From assembly GCA_038062955.1 (NCBI GenBank), contig JBBTWE010000001.1, forward strand, positions 554,271 to 618,270: a stretch of DNA of 64,000 nt. The letters run 5' to 3'. This document shows positions 2,875 through 62,466 of the stretch, piece by piece (the stretch's first letter is position 1; the number at the start of each line of letters is the position of its first letter). Under the pieces are notes generated by a model that had not been told where the DNA came from, made no database searches, and saw nothing but the letters and a program-made list of their open reading frames with translations. The stretch comes from Patescibacteria group bacterium (GTDB taxonomy: Bacteria > Patescibacteriota > Minisyncoccia > Phycocordibacterales > BOKC01). A program made the translations under genes and the position numbers.

Positions 2875-3135
2875 TCAGATGCCGGGAACACGAGGAACCT
2901 GTATGAGAGATGCGGGGTTTGGAAAATCCCGCACAGTTTGCTCGAACGTCGTGAAGGTAGACGTGAGCAAGCTCTCGAAGGCGCCGAACGGTTCCGACAT
3001 AAGAAACTTGAGAATGAGGATAGTCAGCAAGAGACCTATCGCACCTCGGATGCCAAATGTACGCATGAAAATGGTTCGAGGGGGAACCCTTATTGAGCCG
3101 ACTAAGCTCATTCTCACCCCCGACACTACTGACAT
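2875..3135 (-). CDS. Hypothetical small protein (hydrophobic core) in GC-rich island
   Basis: 86-aa ORF that ends just before the terminator at 2843-2871. Three overlapping ORFs occur here and this one best fits the terminator placement. Local GC is much higher than surroundings. Confidence 0.3.
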   Translation of the reverse strand: MSVVSGVRMSLVGSIRVPPRTIFMRTFGIRGAIGLLLTILILKFLMSEPFGAFESLLTSTFTTFEQTVRDFPNPASLIQVPRVPGI

Positions 3136-3302
3136 GCCATCTCTGGAACATGCCCCTAATGCCGGGGGTATTTCTTTTTTTGAAGAGCAATCTGTTTAAA
3201 AGCTAGCAAAAAATTCTCTTGTTGTCAAAGATAAAAAATTTTGACTTAAACACAGAAATAAGATATCTATATATCCGGACGATCTTACAAAAAAGGAGTC
3301 GC

Positions 3303-3810: not shown

Positions 3811-4884
3811 ATGAAAGCTCTTTGGCAAGGTATTCTGGTCGTTGTGGCCATCGCGCTCGGTTTGTCTCTCTATTTCATCTATAACAAGACGGGGGCAAGG
3901 GGAAACTTTGTTCCTGCTGAGATTTCGGAAGAGGCTGTTGCTAGATCAGTCCTAAGCTACGCTATTGACCCGATGTTCTCCTCAAGTAATTTGCTTAGCG
4001 ACCTGAATGGTACAAAAGCAAATCTTGTGATGCACGTGTTGGACGAAGACAAGCTTTACTTCTCTCTTCCAAATACCGAAGATTGGGCACTTGCTAGAGA
4101 TTGTTTGACGAAACAACCGGAGAAGATCGAGTTCAGCAGATCAACCGAGGCACCATACAAACTCGGAAGTCTCATCCTGAAGAAAAGAGACGTCTATTTT
4201 TTCCGGATCGACGCGGATGATTTCAAGATTGAGCCGAACGCCCGTCTTCATATCCCATTCAGACAAGCAGTCTACGATCCAACAGCACGCGAACTTGCGA
4301 AGTTCATCACGAATGAAGTGATTATGTGTGGTAGAGAGTATTTTGCCGCAGAAAAGGTGGGTAAGCGGACTGTTTACGCGGCAAACTTCGGCGCCAGAGT
4401 TACCGTTCCGCGCGAATCATCTCTAACCAGACTTGCGAAAGCAATCGTAGGTGAAGAGAAAGATCAAAGTCGCGCTGTTCAGAAGCTTCTCGATTTTGTG
4501 ACGAATGAGATCGAGTATGACAAGGATGAACGCGAATGGGCGGGCAACAGTCAAGTGGTGAAGCGCGCGAATGAAGTCTTGATGACAAAAAGAGCGACTT
4601 GCGCCAGTAAGGCGGCGCTCTATGCGAGTCTGCTCGAACAAATCGATGGGGACTACATCTTCGCGTACTATCCGAAGCACTTGACCGTGTTTGTTTACGG
4701 ACAATATTCGGATTCAAACGGCCACTCGATAGTATACGAAGGGAAACGCTATCATCTGGCTGAAACGACCAATCCCGGTTTCGTAATAGGCTACACCAAA
4801 ATGGAGCCTGAGTTTTCTCCAGAAAACGACTGGACACATCTCCAGAGACCAAAAGACAGGGACGTCCCGAAAGCAAAGAAGTGA
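3811..4884 (+). CDS. Membrane-anchored protein, possible transglutaminase-like cysteine protease fold
   Basis: 357 aa. N-terminal TM/signal (ILVVVAIALGLSLYFIY). C-terminal region with Cys...His spacing (KRATCASKAALYASLLEQ ... YYPKHLTVFV) reminiscent of transglutaminase-like cores. Fold assignment is tentative. Confidence 0.45.
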   Translation: MKALWQGILVVVAIALGLSLYFIYNKTGARGNFVPAEISEEAVARSVLSYAIDPMFSSSNLLSDLNGTKANLVMHVLDEDKLYFSLPNTEDWALARDCLTKQPEKIEFSRSTEAPYKLGSLILKKRDVYFFRIDADDFKIEPNARLHIPFRQAVYDPTARELAKFITNEVIMCGREYFAAEKVGKRTVYAANFGARVTVPRESSLTRLAKAIVGEEKDQSRAVQKLLDFVTNEIEYDKDEREWAGNSQVVKRANEVLMTKRATCASKAALYASLLEQIDGDYIFAYYPKHLTVFVYGQYSDSNGHSIVYEGKRYHLAETTNPGFVIGYTKMEPEFSPENDWTHLQRPKDRDVPKAKK

Positions 4885-4912
4885 GTTTCGTAATCCTCAC
4901 TTCCCCCTCAAA

Positions 4913-4948
4913 GTCACACACCCACACTGTATCGTGGGTGTTTTTTTA
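4913..4948 (+). terminator. Rho-independent terminator
   Basis: CACACACCCACAC-tgtatc-GTGGGTG followed by T7. Confidence 0.7.
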
Positions 4949-4967
4949 TTACCAAAAAAATCTTGCG

Positions 4968-5402
4968 ATGGTACTCTCTTTATGTTTACATAAACGTAGA
5001 TCCAACCCATTTCGGTTTGGACAGTTCTTGGGGAGACAAAACGTGGACGCCACATTCGAACAAATGCTCATAGAAGCGGAACGTATCAGGGCATCGAGAA
5101 AAACACGTGATTTTATCCTTAGACCCTACCAAAGGCATTTTCATTCAATGAGTGAATATGTCCACAAGCAAGGGTTTATCCCGCGCAGAATAGAAGATTG
5201 GTCAGCTAATGATGAGTACCTCGCATTGTGTACAGAACTGGCCATCTATTTTCTAGAGGAAGACCTTGCCGAGGAAATTGGTTCAGTGCTAGACCTATCC
5301 ACCGAGGAAAAGGTTTCGCTTATCGAACGCGTAAGAAGCAAACTTGAACAAGGGATGAGATTTCATGTATGCGTGGTCCGCGGAGATTCAGACACCGAAT
5401 GA
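4968..5402 (+). CDS. Hypothetical protein (GC-rich island); start uncertain
   Basis: ORF track start 4881 overlaps the upstream terminator. First ATG after the terminator is 4968; alternative start about 5063. No recognisable domain. Confidence 0.4.
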   Translation: MVLSLCLHKRRSNPFRFGQFLGRQNVDATFEQMLIEAERIRASRKTRDFILRPYQRHFHSMSEYVHKQGFIPRRIEDWSANDEYLALCTELAIYFLEEDLAEEIGSVLDLSTEEKVSLIERVRSKLEQGMRFHVCVVRGDSDTE

Positions 5403-6455: not shown

Positions 6456-7562
6456 ATGAAAAAAGTATCAAAAATATCATTACTTCTAATCAGCCTTGTC
6501 GCTCTAATATCGACCTTTTCTGGAGTTGAGACGGTTTTGGCCCAAGAACTTCAGCAAGACTTGCAGGGAGTTTGGCGAGCCGAAGTCTTGAAAATTATTA
6601 AAGAGGAAAAGAAGTTAATTGCGGGAACAGAGACAGAAGTAATCATACAAACTCTCGAAGCTAAAATCCTAGAGGGAGATAAAAGCGGCCAAACAGTTAC
6701 ATTGGTAAACGATTACCTACCACTTCAAGTTGGTGATTCTTTTTTCATGAATTATCTGATCACAATTGATGGCAATGAAATCTATTCAGTAAGAGACATA
6801 GACAGAAGGTCCGCACTCATATTTTTTACTTTGCTTTTTGTGGCAGTAATTATTTATTTTGGTAGGTGGCAAGGACTGCGTTCTATAATGAGCCTCTTTG
6901 GAACTTTTTTAGTAATAATTTATTTTTTACTCCCCCTCCTTCTTAAAGGATATCCTCCGGTTTTGACCAGCAGTTTAATTGCCGCGGCTATACTCTTTCT
7001 AGCAATCTTTCTAACCCACGGTTTTAATCGTGAATCAGGAGTAGCTTTTTCTGGCACAGTTATTGCGGTGATTTTAACCGGAATACTGGCTTCGGTAGCT
7101 GTGAGAATGACCAGGCTTACAGGTTTCGGCAATGAAGAGGCCGTCTATTTAAATTTTGCTACTCTCGGCAATTTAAATTTTTCTGGTCTCCTCTTGGGAG
7201 GAATTATCGTGGGAGTTTTAGGAGTCTTAGACGATATTGCTATTACCCAAGTTGCAGTTGTGCGCGAACTTAAAGAGAGTGTACACAACCTTTCAAAAAA
7301 AGAAATTTATCACAAAGCTATGAGAGTCGGACGAGAACATGCAGGAGCTTTAGTTAACACTTTGGCTTTAGCTTACGCCGGAGCAACTCTTCCATTACTT
7401 TTACTTTTTTCGGTATCCCAAATTGAATTTGGAATGATTTTAAATCAAGAAGCGGTCGCGACTGAAATTATAAGAACTATCATCGGAAGCATTGGACTTA
7501 TTCTCACAATTCCAATCACAACTACCTTGGCTGTTTATTTTCTAGGCCCGAGACACGATTAG
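6456..7562 (+). CDS. YibE/F family integral membrane protein
   Basis: 368 aa. Signal/anchor, an extracellular N-domain and a polytopic C-terminal half with YibE/F-like motifs (GVLDDIAITQV). Confidence 0.6.
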   Translation: MKKVSKISLLLISLVALISTFSGVETVLAQELQQDLQGVWRAEVLKIIKEEKKLIAGTETEVIIQTLEAKILEGDKSGQTVTLVNDYLPLQVGDSFFMNYLITIDGNEIYSVRDIDRRSALIFFTLLFVAVIIYFGRWQGLRSIMSLFGTFLVIIYFLLPLLLKGYPPVLTSSLIAAAILFLAIFLTHGFNRESGVAFSGTVIAVILTGILASVAVRMTRLTGFGNEEAVYLNFATLGNLNFSGLLLGGIIVGVLGVLDDIAITQVAVVRELKESVHNLSKKEIYHKAMRVGREHAGALVNTLALAYAGATLPLLLLFSVSQIEFGMILNQEAVATEIIRTIIGSIGLILTIPITTTLAVYFLGPRHD

Positions 7563-7637
7563 TATATCGGTGCTTGACTTTCTATAACACTAGTAGTACC
7601 TTTTATCAAGGTAGTTCTTTAAAAATTGATCACCAAA

Positions 7638-7753
7638 TGAGACGAGCTTTAAGTGGCTTATATTAAGGTCGAAAATTTCTCATAACTTCGTTATTCGAAA
7701 TCTTTCGACATGATTTTTAAAGTGTAAAAATCAGCCTTTTAAAGCTCGTCTCA
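7638..7753. repeat. Perfect 14-bp inverted repeat (GAGACGAGCTTTAA / TTAAAGCTCGTCTC) enclosing an 88-bp spacer
   Basis: Direct reading. Spacer contains a CGACATGATTTTTAAAGTGTAAAAATCAG palindromic module related to repeats at 19988 and 39700. Abuts the GC-rich island. Confidence 0.7.
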
Positions 7754-7833
7754 TCCCCGAGATAGCGCACCCGTCTGCATCCCGCAGACAACCCGGATCA
7801 GTTCGCTGATCCATGTTCCAGGAGTTGGATCTC

Positions 7834-8430
7834 ATGCTCAACAAACTTCTCTCGGTCATGGTCTTCATGGCGTGGCTCGTTTGCCCCGCCGTGATCGCCC
7901 AGGCGCCGCATCTCCACGCGTTCGTGGATCCGGTGAACCAGTCGGTGAACACGATCAACGTCAGTTGGTTCGTCGAAACAGGAGAGCTCCTGATGTCGAC
8001 AGCCATCAGCCGTGCTCCAATGATGGAGTTCAACTGGAATGAAGAAGACGGCACCCACAACACGCTCACGACCGAAGTCAGCAACACCAAGGAATGGGTC
8101 TTCGAGATCACATCGATCACCGGCCTCGGAGCGTTCGAGAACGGCAAGATCGTCCCGCAAGGACAAGGCCAGGGTCCGGCTCAGAGTTCCTACACAACCT
8201 CATGGGTCGATTCGAATGGTTCAACATGGACAGTGCTCACGCTACGCACCTCAACCACTGCTGCAGGAAGGAAAGAAGAACTCCGAAACCACCTCGAACA
8301 AGTAAGGGAGATGCAATCAGCATTCCCCCCAAGACCCGTGACGCCACCGCCCGAACCGGAGCCGGAGGAAGCGTTCCTCTCCCCGCCACCCAGGTGGCAC
8401 CGATCCGAGGTACGACTCGCGCTTGTCTAG
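7834..8430 (+). CDS. Secreted Pro-rich hypothetical protein (about 60% GC)
   Basis: AGGAG RBS, then ATG at 7834. Signal peptide MLNKLLSVMVFMAWLVCPAVIAQA with AxA site. C-terminus PPRPVTPPPEPEPEE. GC about 60% against a 35% background. ORFs on other frames and the opposite strand overlap it. Confidence 0.5.
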   Translation: MLNKLLSVMVFMAWLVCPAVIAQAPHLHAFVDPVNQSVNTINVSWFVETGELLMSTAISRAPMMEFNWNEEDGTHNTLTTEVSNTKEWVFEITSITGLGAFENGKIVPQGQGQGPAQSSYTTSWVDSNGSTWTVLTLRTSTTAAGRKEELRNHLEQVREMQSAFPPRPVTPPPEPEPEEAFLSPPPRWHRSEVRLALV

Positions 8431-8520
8431 CCCCGATAAGTTGGGCTCAACAAGTGTGACCGAACCAACCTCGGAGGTGATCAACGTCTGTGCTTAGGCA
8501 ATTGTGCCTACAGCACCAAT

Positions 8521-8574
8521 CGACCTTCCAATCATATGTCACATCGTGGCAGATGAGTGGAAGGTCGTTTTTTT
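8521..8574 (+). terminator. Rho-independent terminator
   Basis: CGACCTTCCA ... TGGAAGGTCG followed by T8. Confidence 0.65.
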
Positions 8575-8646
8575 GTGCCAAACTTGCTTTAATATGCACT
8601 ATGTGTTAATTTTTATTGATAAAGCGTTAGGAAATAAAGATCAACC

Positions 8647-9162
8647 TTGATTCAAAAACCAAGAATAAACAATCAAATAAGGGCCAAAGAACTCCGAGTT
8701 ATCGGTCCGGAAGGAGAAAACTTAGGTGTTTTGGTGTTCGGGGAAGCTCTTAAAAAAGCTCACGAATTACAACTTGATCTGATTGAAATTTCACCTAATG
8801 CCGTTCCTCCAATTGCGAAAATAGCCGATTTTGGCAGATTCCAATATGAGGAGAAGAAGAAGCAGAAGTTAGCCAAAACCAAGGCTCACACCGTTGAGGT
8901 AAAAAGTATTCAGGTAAAAGTCGGGACTGGCGAACATGATTTGGCTTTAAAAGCCAGAAAAGCTAGTGAATGGCTTGCTGAAGGAAACCGTGTAAGAGTG
9001 GATTTATTTTTACCGGGAAGATCCAAATATCTTGATTTCAAATTTCTTAAGGAAAGATTGGATCGGATCTTGAAATTAGTAGAGATCCCATATAAGGTAA
9101 CTGAAAGTCCTAAAAAAAGTCCGAAGGGATTGACAGTTGTTATAGAGAAGGCGAATGCATGA
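8647..9162 (+). CDS. infC: Translation initiation factor IF-3
   Basis: INNQIRAKELRVIGPEGENLGVL matches the IF-3 N-domain. Non-ATG start (TTG/ATT) is typical of infC. Confidence 0.85.
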   Translation: MIQKPRINNQIRAKELRVIGPEGENLGVLVFGEALKKAHELQLDLIEISPNAVPPIAKIADFGRFQYEEKKKQKLAKTKAHTVEVKSIQVKVGTGEHDLALKARKASEWLAEGNRVRVDLFLPGRSKYLDFKFLKERLDRILKLVEIPYKVTESPKKSPKGLTVVIEKANA

Positions 9163-19980: not shown

Positions 19981-20012
19981 TTTATTCCGACATGATTTCT
20001 GTGGTGCAGAAA
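19981..20012. repeat. Palindromic module CCGACATGATTTCTGTGGTGCAGAAATCAG
   Basis: Same module at 39690-39720 and a variant at 7698-7728. Confidence 0.6.
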
Positions 20013-20360
20013 TCAGAACTCAAGTCCTCCGGCTCGTAGTGCTTCAGCCAAAGCTTTAACTTTACCAGTATATATAAATCCACCACGATCAAAAACAACT
20101 TTTTTGATACCTTTTTTAATCGCATCGCTCGCCAAAGTCTTTCCCATTAACTGCACTTTTTCCATCACAGAAGATCCTTTAAGTTCTTTGGTTGTACCAG
20201 CAGCTAAAGTTTTACCAACTTCATCATTGATGACTTGGGCTGACAAATATTTATTAGACCTGAAAACAGCCACGCGTGGACGTTCATTTGTACCAGAGAT
20301 TTTAGCTCTAATTTTTTTCTGGCTTCTTTTTCGAGGTGATGTATGTATTAATTTTGCCAT
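20013..20360 (-). CDS. rplR: 50S ribosomal protein L18
   Basis: Sequence and order. Confidence 0.9.
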   Translation of the reverse strand: MAKLIHTSPRKRSQKKIRAKISGTNERPRVAVFRSNKYLSAQVINDEVGKTLAAGTTKELKGSSVMEKVQLMGKTLASDAIKKGIKKVVFDRGGFIYTGKVKALAEALRAGGLEF

Positions 20361-31108: not shown

Positions 31109-31261
31109 AACTTTCACATTTGGCCAATTACTTTGCTAAAATCTGCGCTTCGATGCTGATTTCTACATCATAGAAATCATGTCGGAAGATTTTTTATCAC
31201 GAAGTGATATAAAATTTCTGACTCAGTTTTATCAAAGAACTTGTCTCAAATCTGGAAGTTC
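31109..31261. mobile_element. MITE-like element immediately upstream of tuf
   Basis: TIR AACTTTCACATTTGGCC / CAAATCTGGAAGTTC. Contains the GAAATCATGTCGGAAGATTTTTTATCACGAAGTGATATAAAATTTC module shared with 50371 and 62280. Confidence 0.55.
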
Positions 31262-39563: not shown

Positions 39564-39589
39564 TTTTTGAGAGACATTGCGGAGGCGAG

Positions 39590-39720
39590 TCAGAAATTTT
39601 ATATCACGAAGTGATATAAAATCTTCCGACATGATTTCTGTAGTGCAAATCGCGTCGTAAATTTTACACAACTACGTTGTGAAAAATCTTCCGACGTGAT
39701 TTCTGTAGTGCAGAAATCAC
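39590..39720. repeat. Two inverted-orientation copies of the ATCACGAAGTGATATAAAAT / CCGACATGATTTCTGTAGTGCA modules
   Basis: Shared with MITE internal modules (31161, 50455, 62366) and with 19981. Confidence 0.6.
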
Positions 39721-42855: not shown

Positions 42856-43512
42856 TTAGTAGCAGAACCAGATTGCCGTCGTGACGAGCCAGCTCAATTC
42901 ATTGCCTGACTCGCCGATTAGCATTCCTTGGTTCTTCTTGTTCCAACCATCCTGTCGTGCCGCGAGCCAAATCTCAACTAGCCTCGTGCAAACAGTGATG
43001 TGACCTATCGTGAGAGTCGCACCTGCCAAACCGTCTTTTCGACCTGCAACGATGATGCAGTACCCGATAAACAGTTGAGGCACACTCTTGAGTAGCAACG
43101 CGATAATGCCTCTGGTGATCGGTTCAGAAACTGTCGCAACGAGCGACCCTTTCCGTCGTGTTACCAGTAGCACCGCGAGACTAACGAGAATCAAAATGGT
43201 GAGTATCGTGTCTTGTCTCGACCACGTGCCCTTGATGGCGATGATGGCGAACAAAGTAAGCCAGAGCAGCAACCAGTTTGCATACACGAGCACCACCTGA
43301 CCAGCCTTTCGACTCTTCGACTGTTCATAAGCTCCGAGAGCCAAGAACAAATTGATGAGAACGAATGCCGAGCAGAACATGGTCCATGTAATGGTCATGC
43401 CCGCAGTGCTCTCAAGAGAACGGATGACTTGCGGCACAGTGAAGGCCCAAGCCATTGATAGCTGGAACCAGAAAAGCAGGTCGCCAGCTAGCCGCTTGTT
43501 TTCGGCAGACAT
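42856..43512 (-). CDS. GC-rich polytopic membrane protein, possible PQ-loop repeat family
   Basis: 218 aa, about 7 TM. Two PQ motifs (VPQVIR, VPQLFI) about 110 aa apart. Local GC about 52%. Confidence 0.4.
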   Translation of the reverse strand: MSAENKRLAGDLLFWFQLSMAWAFTVPQVIRSLESTAGMTITWTMFCSAFVLINLFLALGAYEQSKSRKAGQVVLVYANWLLLWLTLFAIIAIKGTWSRQDTILTILILVSLAVLLVTRRKGSLVATVSEPITRGIIALLLKSVPQLFIGYCIIVAGRKDGLAGATLTIGHITVCTRLVEIWLAARQDGWNKKNQGMLIGESGNELSWLVTTAIWFCY

Positions 43513-50341: not shown

Positions 50342-50370
50342 TTAAAATATTTTAACTCAACCAAATTTTA

Positions 50371-50549
50371 GAACTCTCAAATTCGGTGCATACCTTTGTT
50401 ACTTCGCTCCGAGAGCCTCCCTCAACGTATTATTAAATACGTCTCGTTATGGTTCACCATAGAAATCATGTCGGAAGATTTTTTATCACGAAGTGATATA
50501 AAATTTCCGACTCGCTCGTACCTCGGTCTGCATCCGAATTTGAGAGTTC
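50371..50549. mobile_element. MITE-like element between pilin gene and pilC
   Basis: TIR GAACTCTCAAATTCGGTGCA / TGCATCCGAATTTGAGAGTTC (20 bp, one mismatch). Modules: CGCTCCGAGAGCCTCCCTCAACGTATTATTAAATACGTCTCG, and GAAATCATGTCGGAAGATTTTTTATCACGAAGTGATATAAAATTTCCGACTC. Confidence 0.65.
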
Positions 50550-50552
50550 TAA

Positions 50553-62280: not shown

Positions 62281-62466
62281 AACTTTCACATTCGGCGTAT
62301 CTCTGCGTTACTTCGCTCCGAGCCTCCCTCAACGTATTATTAAATACGTCTCGGTACGGTTCTGATTTCTACACCATAGAAATCATGTCGGGAGATTTTT
62401 TATCACGAAGTGATATAAAATTTCCGACTCGCTCGCGCCTTGATCTGCATCCGAATCTGAAAGTTC
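62280..62466. mobile_element. MITE-like element overlapping rpsO stop
   Basis: TIR GAACTTTCACATTCGG / CCGAATCTGAAAGTTC. Module content near-identical to the 50371 copy. Confidence 0.65.

Follow-up and report, generated by a model that had tools for sequence, protein, structure and literature searches.

A GC-rich gene cassette for a predicted exported protein in a low-GC Patescibacteria genome, with relatives in phage-like contigs

How does a gene of 58.0% GC come to stand in a genome stretch of 38.8% GC, and what keeps its composition there? The question is raised by an open reading frame (ORF) at positions 7834–8430 on the forward strand of a 64-kb stretch of DNA (contig JBBTWE010000001.1 of a Patescibacteria group bacterium; hereafter, the window), encoding a predicted exported protein with a proline-rich end. 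An initial annotation had singled this gene out as the GC extreme of the window, which is borne out by its composition: the richest 597-nt segment has 58.6% GC and lies at this gene (at 7851), compared to 52.3% for the next one elsewhere (at 13541), and the longer segment 7753–8575 has 56.5% GC. The GC contents at first, second and third codon positions (GC1/2/3) of 0.57/0.47/0.69 follow the order GC3 > GC1 > GC2, and GC3 in the flanking genes is 0.32. The description as a gene for an exported, proline-rich protein of foreign composition in a Patescibacteria metagenome-assembled genome (MAG) likewise stood. The answer that we consider probable is that the gene is an anciently acquired cassette of phage type, resembling the phage genes known as morons, which encodes a recombining envelope or extracellular protein and has been inherited at a fixed locus.

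The locus and its alleles

The gene is preceded by a gene for a yibE/F-type membrane protein and followed by infC, with rpmI, rplT and other housekeeping genes nearby; no prophage was found around the ORF, all neighbors being housekeeping genes. An identical locus is present in five independent assemblies from one groundwater site, including GCA_964363395.1 (a MAG with the NCBI name Patescibacteria group bacterium). Six alleles were compared, namely those of the window, L001, L002 (= L010/L011), L003 (= L009), L030 (= L031/L033) and the partial L034. In four of the six (window, L002, L030/L031/L033 and L034) the gene lies directly 3′ of yibE/F, and infC is next downstream in all three of these with a downstream flank (window, L002 and L030/L031/L033), the L034 contig ending within the gene; L001 is an exception, where the cassette directly follows the Zip gene. 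The alleles all have 58–62% GC and a GC3 of 0.68–0.79 (complete ORFs), in flanks of 39–43% GC. The L002 product is truncated as called, and its full length is obtained from an upstream ATG.

A GC-rich fragment in a low-GC contig might stem from an assembly chimera or from contamination, and in one related scaffold, L032, two alleles are indeed joined by a stretch of N. The same junctions are, however, found in five independent assemblies as well as in diverged relatives whose flanks are conserved on either side, and an artefact is therefore excluded for all practical purposes, its probability being close to nil. In L032 itself (positions 4790–5150), a fragment of an L003-type allele is followed by ten N and then by an L030-type allele, with one shared leader; this represents either a strain mixture or an assembly join at the conserved GCTCGTCTCAT, and both allele types thus co-occur in one sample.

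The ORF is a real gene. Its frame is intact in the six alleles, where indels are multiples of three, differences between alleles decrease from third to first to second codon positions, and the ratio of nonsynonymous to synonymous divergence (dN/dS) is 0.28–0.40, compared to 0.04–0.07 in flanking genes. This bears on a reading of the segment as a GC-rich structured non-coding RNA with a spurious ORF, which would agree with the long ORFs that the GC-rich DNA gives here in several frames and with the conserved stems in parts of the untranslated regions (UTRs). The conserved frame, the excess of third-position differences and a dN/dS below 1 argue against it, as do homologs recognizable at the protein level (E down to 2e-14), a domain confidently modeled by AlphaFold2 (AF2), the lack of an Rfam match and a coding sequence (CDS) that in the window folds like its shuffles (z = 0.06), making this reading highly improbable. 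Two antisense ORFs, 7731–8147 and 7798–8166, were set aside, as they have no Pfam match and a length usual for GC-rich DNA.

Between the window and L002, the synonymous divergence (dS) of the cassette (0.89) equals that of its flanks (IF3 0.89, YibE/F 0.99, L20 1.46, Zip 1.86). Syntenic orthologs with flank-like dS argue against a recent transfer; the gene has diverged along with the genomes. The origin initially proposed was such a transfer, from a GC-rich, actinobacterial host, of an adhesion or surface factor within an element bounded by an inverted repeat. The composition foreign to the genome, the exported proline-rich protein and the assignment of the genome to Patescibacteria, which are often episymbiotic, are compatible with this proposal. 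Apart from the dS values, it is opposed by the absence of any homolog from a named cellular organism (in a word search of 5.8 billion clusters, a profile search of 1.84 billion representatives and a pattern scan of GTDB), by a GC3 of 0.69, which is below the values usual for very GC-rich actinobacterial genes, and by an inverted repeat that has both arms on the upstream side of the gene, occurs nowhere else in the window and pairs as a conserved RNA stem.

The BLAST and profile searches proposed as a check returned close homologs only from related low-GC Patescibacteria contigs and distant ones from phage-like contigs, and a comparison of relatives for presence or absence returned syntenic orthologs at the same locus. 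The initial annotation had itself named, as a finding that would speak against transfer, homologs restricted to low-GC genomes of the Candidate Phyla Radiation (CPR) and equally GC-rich; precisely this was found for all close homologs (58–62% GC in flanks of 39–43%), and a recent host-derived transfer is therefore refuted in the form proposed and very unlikely as a whole. Homologs of the C-terminal domain (C-domain) are numerous in high-GC phage-like contigs, which keeps the idea of transfer alive as an old acquisition from the phage pool rather than from a host genome. In the more distantly related GCA_020724885.1 (YibE/F 67% identical), where the gene order is different, no cassette was found in the flanks examined. 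A scan of GTDB with a leader DNA pattern gave chance matches only, in unrelated phyla, and a metagenome scan gave known loci only.

Phage-like relatives and mosaic evolution

A profile hidden Markov model built from the four closest proteins matched 70 of 1.84 billion representative proteins at E ≤ 1e-3 (down to 2e-14). Besides the members of the Patescibacteria clade, all but one of the matches are 99–198 aa long, and the lone 391-aa match covers the signal-peptide region only. The ~65 small relatives outside the clade form ~65 clusters at 50% identity, compared to one locus inside. All 29 members read (29/29) have an N-terminal hydrophobic segment, and their match is limited to the C-terminal ~50–55 residues (profile positions ~107–170), with the consensus LTTSWxDxxGVTHxVxTPxxSTTxxGxxxAxxLHxxLVxxMQxxxPPRP; most of the out-of-clade members among them end shortly past PPRPxPPP. 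The six distant-family contexts examined are contigs of up to 61–64 kb with 51–69% GC throughout, and three of them are IMG/VR viral genomes. These contigs are packed with small same-strand ORFs and encode a DnaB-like helicase, a family-A DNA polymerase and other helicases. The proteins constitute an undescribed family of small signal-peptide proteins sharing the C-domain, with all contexts examined being GC-rich and phage-like. Searches of 50,697 deposited phage records by tblastn, with the protein and a phage-type relative as queries, gave no match.

One phage-like lineage carries a PurZ-like adenylosuccinate synthetase. The genes in question (L022 635–2649 and L023 773–2802) are 35–40% identical to phage genes annotated as "2-aminooxy adenylosuccinate synthetase" and adjoin a gene for an AAA_33/dUTPase_2-type protein; phages of the L022/L023 type may contain 2-aminoadenine (Z-base) DNA.

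Within the clade, the cassette and its flanks differ in protein conservation: between the window and L001, Zip is 96% identical (dN 0.03) and the cassette proteins are 72% identical (dN 0.21). Compared to L030, the window shows 80–90% identity in the flanks, 87–93% in the leader, ~75% in the signal-peptide region and 32–57% in the mature region (7928–8450). The mature part of the L030 protein is more similar to proteins from phage contigs (37% identity over 119 aa; E = 4e-20) than to its counterpart in the window (27%). Across the domain (52 residues), L002 and L030 both show 50–54% identity to some phage members and 31–44% to the other clade alleles, and a neighbor-joining tree of this short alignment, which is of low resolution, does not group the clade alleles. 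Synonymous differences at codons for identical residues amount to 79% (window/L002) and 83% (window/L030) in the C-domain, compared to 18–50% in other segments (p = 0.0018 and 0.0035, respectively), and range from 9% to 55% between segments for the window and L001. As protein selection cannot raise synonymous divergence in one segment, this unevenness indicates intragenic recombination among divergent alleles.

With L002 as outgroup, substitutions were polarized among L001, L003 and the window. At third positions, 15 changes went from GC to AT (193 ancestral GC sites) and 8 from AT to GC (38 ancestral AT sites), which implies an equilibrium GC3 of ~0.73, while a host-like equilibrium (GC3 0.32) would give 91.5% GC-to-AT changes (P = 4e-4 for the observed split). 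The corresponding counts are 6 and 4 in strictly synonymous codons (P = 0.012) and 37 and 35 over all positions. These counts suggest that GC is maintained, in agreement with a GC3 that is consistently high in every allele in spite of dS values of 0.6–1.3. The GC3 near 0.7 may be kept by recurrent input of GC-rich alleles or by selection, and of all features of the locus, its maintenance is the most unusual.

Selection alone, acting on mRNA or protein, would have kept the GC content if the gene were native to the lineage and had never been transferred in, the phage copies then being captured or convergent. Such an origin would suit the close homologs, which are equally GC-rich and all found at one locus in the clade, the compositionally balanced substitutions and the conserved structured UTRs. 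However, by far the greater part of the family's diversity lies outside the clade (the ~65 clusters versus one locus), the contigs of the outside members checked have a high GC content over their whole length, and the L030 allele is nearer to phage members than to its syntenic counterparts (the 37% and 27% given above). RNA structure within the CDS was furthermore rejected as a cause of the high GC, as no consistent excess was found (z = +0.06 for the window, and -4.2 and -1.7). We regard a purely native gene as unlikely.

As the family is diverse in GC-rich elements, whereas a single low-GC clade has it at a single locus, transfer from the phage pool to a Patescibacteria ancestor would be the more parsimonious direction. 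Under the old acquisition that we favor, the ancestor of a narrow clade would have acquired a moron-type phage gene, followed by vertical inheritance at the same chromosomal site. The non-coding ends, including RNA stems with compensatory changes, have been conserved since, and the coding core has evolved fast, as a mosaic of segments differing in synonymous divergence; recombination among divergent alleles, or selection, would hold GC3 near 0.7 versus decay to the genomic 0.32. In the present genome, a dispersed 67-nt repeat with two hairpins has landed in the loop of a leader stem (P1, see below). The gene would be transcribed from a conserved promoter-like site, its mRNA ends being protected or regulated by the conserved stems, and the product would be exported by the Sec pathway and cleaved near Ala22/Gln23, leaving the mature protein outside the cell or in the wall.

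Several observations weigh against this history. The direction of transfer is read only from where the family is diverse, none of the six inspected distant-family contexts (0/6) has an assigned host, and a nucleotide-level comparison with eight phage-like loci for a donor gave only a 38-nt match. In a scan of one genome per GTDB species, protein patterns specific to the Patescibacteria type, which do not cover the broader family, found no relative. The polarized substitution counts are small, and the tree assumed for them is violated by recombination. The promoter-like hexamers were not reported by a consensus scan, the -10 element being weak, and regarding function, the protein and its relatives gave no match (0) to Pfam, NCBIfam, PHROGs, PADLOC or PDB sequence profiles.

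A variant of the acquisition scenario, distinctly unlikely in our estimate, would make the locus a fixed "landing pad", in which the conserved leader (with the signal peptide) and 3′ end act as recombination arms and the ultra-small episymbiont repeatedly swaps in gene segments from GC-rich phages, possibly those of its partner bacterium. If true, the landing pad would represent a three-way gene flow between CPR bacterium, host and phage yielding an interface protein, with a gene kept GC-rich and hypervariable.

The transcription unit and its RNA elements

The region 7574–8574 appears to be one self-contained transcription unit, composed of a promoter-like site, a structured leader of ~225 nt, a Shine-Dalgarno (SD) sequence, an ORF of 198 codons, two 3′ hairpins and an intrinsic terminator (Table 1). 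The non-coding parts were aligned for five orthologous loci, with the leader of L034 compared besides, and across the five, conservation is higher in the non-coding ends than in the protein. The promoter-like site is found in all of these (5/5), with an invariant TTGAC and a TAYCNT hexamer 16–17 nt downstream, which makes a promoter role plausible but weak. A 17-nt inverted repeat around the whole unit (7605–7621/8635–8651) was judged by eye to be unconserved in the orthologs and was taken as chance.

Table 1 Features of the GC-rich transcription unit, with coordinates in the window.
Feature	Coordinates	Strand	Remarks
Putative sigma-70-type promoter	7574–7602	+	TTGACT 7574–7579, 17-nt spacer, TACCTT 7597–7602
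Conserved leader 5′ end (AAGRTAGTTCYTTAAMAATTGATCAYY)	7608–7636	+	Nearly invariant in five orthologs; same stretch in L034
Leader 9-mer TTGATCACC	7626–7634	+	Complementary to GGTGATCAA in the 3′ UTR; L001 and L034 variants keep G-U pairing
Leader stem P1 (initially annotated inverted repeat)	7637–7754	+	Exact 16-bp arms 7637–7652/7739–7754, imperfect to 28 nt
67-nt two-hairpin module in P1 loop	7668–7734	+	nhmmer E = 8.5e-18
Leader hairpin P2, GTCTGC...GCAGAC	7773–7789	+	100% paired in five orthologs; one compensatory change, G-C to A-U (L003)
Leader hairpin P3, GGATCAG-TTCG-CTGATCC	7795–7812	+	71% of cells pair across orthologs; weakly conserved
Shine-Dalgarno sequence AGGAG	7820–7824	+	9 nt before ATG; GGAG kept at same place in orthologs
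CDS, 198-aa secreted-protein precursor, MEK7552331.1 (hypothetical protein)	7834–8430	+	Conserved frame; profile-HMM family
Predicted signal peptide, residues 1–22	7834–7899	+	Cleavage probably after Ala22; hydropathy; AF2 helix 2–16
Beta-hairpin and helix C-terminal domain, residues 119–165	8188–8328	+	Sole part in common with phage-contig family
Pro-rich tail	8314–8427	+	11 Pro/38 residues; extension specific to Patescibacteria alleles
Super-Shine-Dalgarno-like GGAGGTGATCAA	8473–8484	+	Invariant in 5/5 orthologs; unique in window
3′-UTR hairpin	8490–8516	+	-14.6 kcal/mol in window; pairs in 5/5 orthologs with differing stems (compensatory)
Intrinsic terminator	8521–8574	+	Stem 8521–8567 and T7 8568–8574; -28.6 kcal/mol; compensatory changes in L001, L002 and L030

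A perfect 14-bp inverted repeat with an 88-bp spacer had initially been described as bordering the gene. The repeat is exact, GAGACGAGCTTTAA at 7639–7652 and its complement at 7739–7752 having no other site in the window even with two mismatches, but its arms are really 16 bp long with an 86-bp spacer, and it does not border the gene, as the ATG (7834) is downstream of both arms. As RNA, this P1 element folds at -48.2 kcal/mol (z = -9.4 versus shuffles). In the five orthologs 97.5% of cells pair, with compensatory changes at 5 of the 16 pairs, and the basal 11 bp are nearly invariant with a single mispair (L001). The stem base is found in six of six orthologs, and only the apex differs, being a short loop in L002, an unrelated two-hairpin insert in L001, L003 and L034, and the 67-nt module in the window and L030. 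Considered as the border of a mobile element, the repeat was rejected on its position upstream of the ATG, on its ends, which are not repeated in the 64 kb, and on the lack of any presence/absence polymorphism of the whole unit; the arms being unique, only the loop module occurs elsewhere in the window. The inverted repeat is thus the base of a 5′-leader RNA stem with a repeat inserted in its loop, and no mobile-element boundary. Of the Rfam families, tmRNA and tRNA (four genes) alone reach their thresholds in the window; hits in 7500–8700, where the search was made permissive, have E values of at least 0.37 and score far below theirs.

The 3′ UTR contains the SD-like GGAGGTGATCAA, which is complementary to the leader 9-mer TTGATCACC over 9 nt as well as to the canonical 3′ end of 16S rRNA, and is not consistently followed by a start codon. 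It is a candidate for 5′–3′ pairing with the leader, for ribosome docking or for a protein site. A comparable element is STAB-SD, the mRNA stabilizer of Bacillus thuringiensis cryIIIA, to which GGAGGTGATCAA would correspond as a perfect SD-like sequence that is conserved in an untranslated region with no start codon after it; it differs in lying just past the stop codon, in the 3′ UTR, rather than near the 5′ end, and in its complementarity to the leader. The strong downstream terminator of the initial annotation was recovered. Past the terminator, L002 (5573–5700) and L030 (2111–2215) contain an extra insert of ~100 nt that is absent from the window and rich in inverted short repeats of the CTAGTGCC/GGCGCTAGG type.

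The spacer of the inverted repeat had also been said to contain a module common to other loci, and in the window nhmmer indeed detected six copies at full length and a further one in part. Besides the copy in P1, the full ones lie at 31156–31222(-), 39589–39653(+), 39654–39720(+), 50445–50511(-) and 62362–62428(-), and the partial one at 19985–20016(+). The module forms two hairpins, of which the first has a UUCG loop, and compensatory changes distinguish its copies, which are mostly in sense orientation to adjacent genes; no Rfam family matches it. An orthologous copy is present in L030 and missing in L002, and L033 has an extra copy, 3127–3193(-), between infC and rpmI, where the window site is empty, so that copies of the module come and go. 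Like REP/BIME, Correia and RUP/BOX-type repeats, which resemble miniature inverted-repeat transposable elements, the module is short, hairpin-forming, intergenic and multi-copy, with positions that vary between genomes; unlike these, it has no evident target-site duplication or terminal repeats, a UUCG loop and mostly sense copies. We know of no sequence relation between the module and any of them. At 50368–50552 and 62300–62450, the module is part of a composite repeat of ~150 nt that also contains a shared TACTTCGCTCCGAG..CCTCCCTCAACGTATTATTAAATACGTCTCG segment, and the former copy is enclosed, as judged by eye, by a 19-bp inverted repeat, TTAGAACTCTCAAATTCGG/CCGAATTTGAGAGTTCTAA.

The encoded protein and its relation to known systems

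The N-terminus of the protein consists of MLNK followed by LLSVMVFMAWLVCPAVIA, with a mean Kyte-Doolittle hydropathy of 2.44 over residues 5–22 and a helix at residues 2–16 in the AF2 model. Features suggestive of Sec export and signal peptidase I cleavage comprise Lys4, the hydrophobic residues 5–22 and the possible sites V-I-A↓Q and A-Q-A↓P, of which Ala-Gln is conserved. The hydrophobic leader agrees with the signal peptide initially annotated, though less so the AxA cleavage site, as the AQA at residues 22–24 precedes Pro and is unconserved (AQD, AQQ and AQS in orthologs); a cut between the conserved Ala and the Gln behind it is therefore more probable. The lipobox pattern L-[ASTV]-[GAS]-C is not matched, W-L-V-C having Val at -1, and neither L002 nor L003 has the Cys. 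The mature protein of ~175 residues would be exported by Sec and reside outside the cell or in the wall.

The variable N-terminal part is beta-rich and remains uncertain in the AF2 model based on 19 sequences, in which the C-domain is predicted with a predicted local distance difference test score (pLDDT) of 95–98 and consists of two strands (119–126 and 131–137) and a helix (143–163); an earlier model from 4 sequences was unusable (pLDDT 39). Foldseek searches of PDB and BFVD with the model gave no match with E < 0.07. An internal duplication was considered, since WNEEDGTH in the N-terminal region and WxDxxGVTH in the C-domain align in the expected register, and was rejected as not significant (E = 0.11). 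The proline-rich C-terminus noted initially was confirmed, with 11 Pro in the last 38 residues. The stop codon of the window allele (TAG, 8428–8430) is early, all orthologs running on to a conserved ...GKWA end, and an insertion of ~20 nt at 8428–8447 (GCCCCGATAAGTTGGGC, a small hairpin) lies between the stop and the remnant AAGTGTGA.

As to function, we offer tentatively, as a guess that is doubtful rather than probable, that the protein acts extracellularly at the envelope, either in the exclusion of phages or in contacts with partner cells; such an interface role would be in keeping with the phage pedigree and with an evolution that is fast and mosaic. A role in adhesion, as initially suggested, would be no more than a possibility.

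The closest concept for the locus is the phage moron, an autonomous extra gene such as lambda bor/lom or those of HK97-type phages. The cassette has in common with morons a single gene with a promoter-like site and a terminator, a deviant composition, a small exported product and relatives among small phage ORFs. In contrast to morons, it is found in a cellular chromosome with no prophage, where it has persisted through a dS of ~0.6–1.3, and its long, conserved and structured leader and 3′ UTR are not moron-defining. Of what marks a moron, composition and phage homologs were thus found and a prophage location was not, and the locus may be best described as an old horizontally acquired ORFan cassette. 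Phages also encode exclusion proteins that act at the envelope, such as Ltp of TP-J34, Llp of T5 and Cor. These are likewise small and phage-borne with an N-terminal export signal, and fast evolution is expected at such an interface; the cassette protein differs from them in having no lipobox and no likeness in sequence or fold in Pfam, PHROGs, PADLOC, PDB and BFVD.

Other parts of the window also stand out. A second GC-rich orphan gene (42856–43512, minus strand; 51.6% GC, GC3 0.62), with a TTGACA-type promoter-like site upstream and a hairpin downstream, encodes a hydrophobic protein of 218 aa, probably a multi-pass membrane protein, with no Pfam match. The block 13061–15917 (48.7% GC) encodes a GFO/IDH/MocA oxidoreductase, a DegT/DnrJ/EryC1 aminotransferase and a NUDIX protein, and this set of sugar-modification type may be another acquired island. 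A tmRNA gene at 1731–2127 (116 bits) encodes a tag peptide of 26 residues, ANNLVAKAKSIVSPYFGNEKLAFVYA, which is longer than the ~10 residues of the tag peptides of model bacteria.

The locus does not represent a new kind of system and is, apart from its persistent GC content and mosaic dS, an ordinary one. Acquired genes are expected to drift to the composition of the recipient (on gene transfer and amelioration in Patescibacteria in general, see PMC12455944). Here, ~58–62% GC has been kept in genomes of ~40% GC through near-saturating synonymous divergence, apparently in the form of a recombining mosaic. If this pattern holds, the gene would provide a concrete locus for gene flow between phages and Patescibacteria and a candidate extracellular protein for a group with very poorly characterized cell-cell and phage interactions. 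It would further bring to light an undescribed family of small secreted proteins with a confidently predicted beta-hairpin/helix domain, as well as an undescribed dispersed, RNA-like repeat of 67 nt in these genomes.

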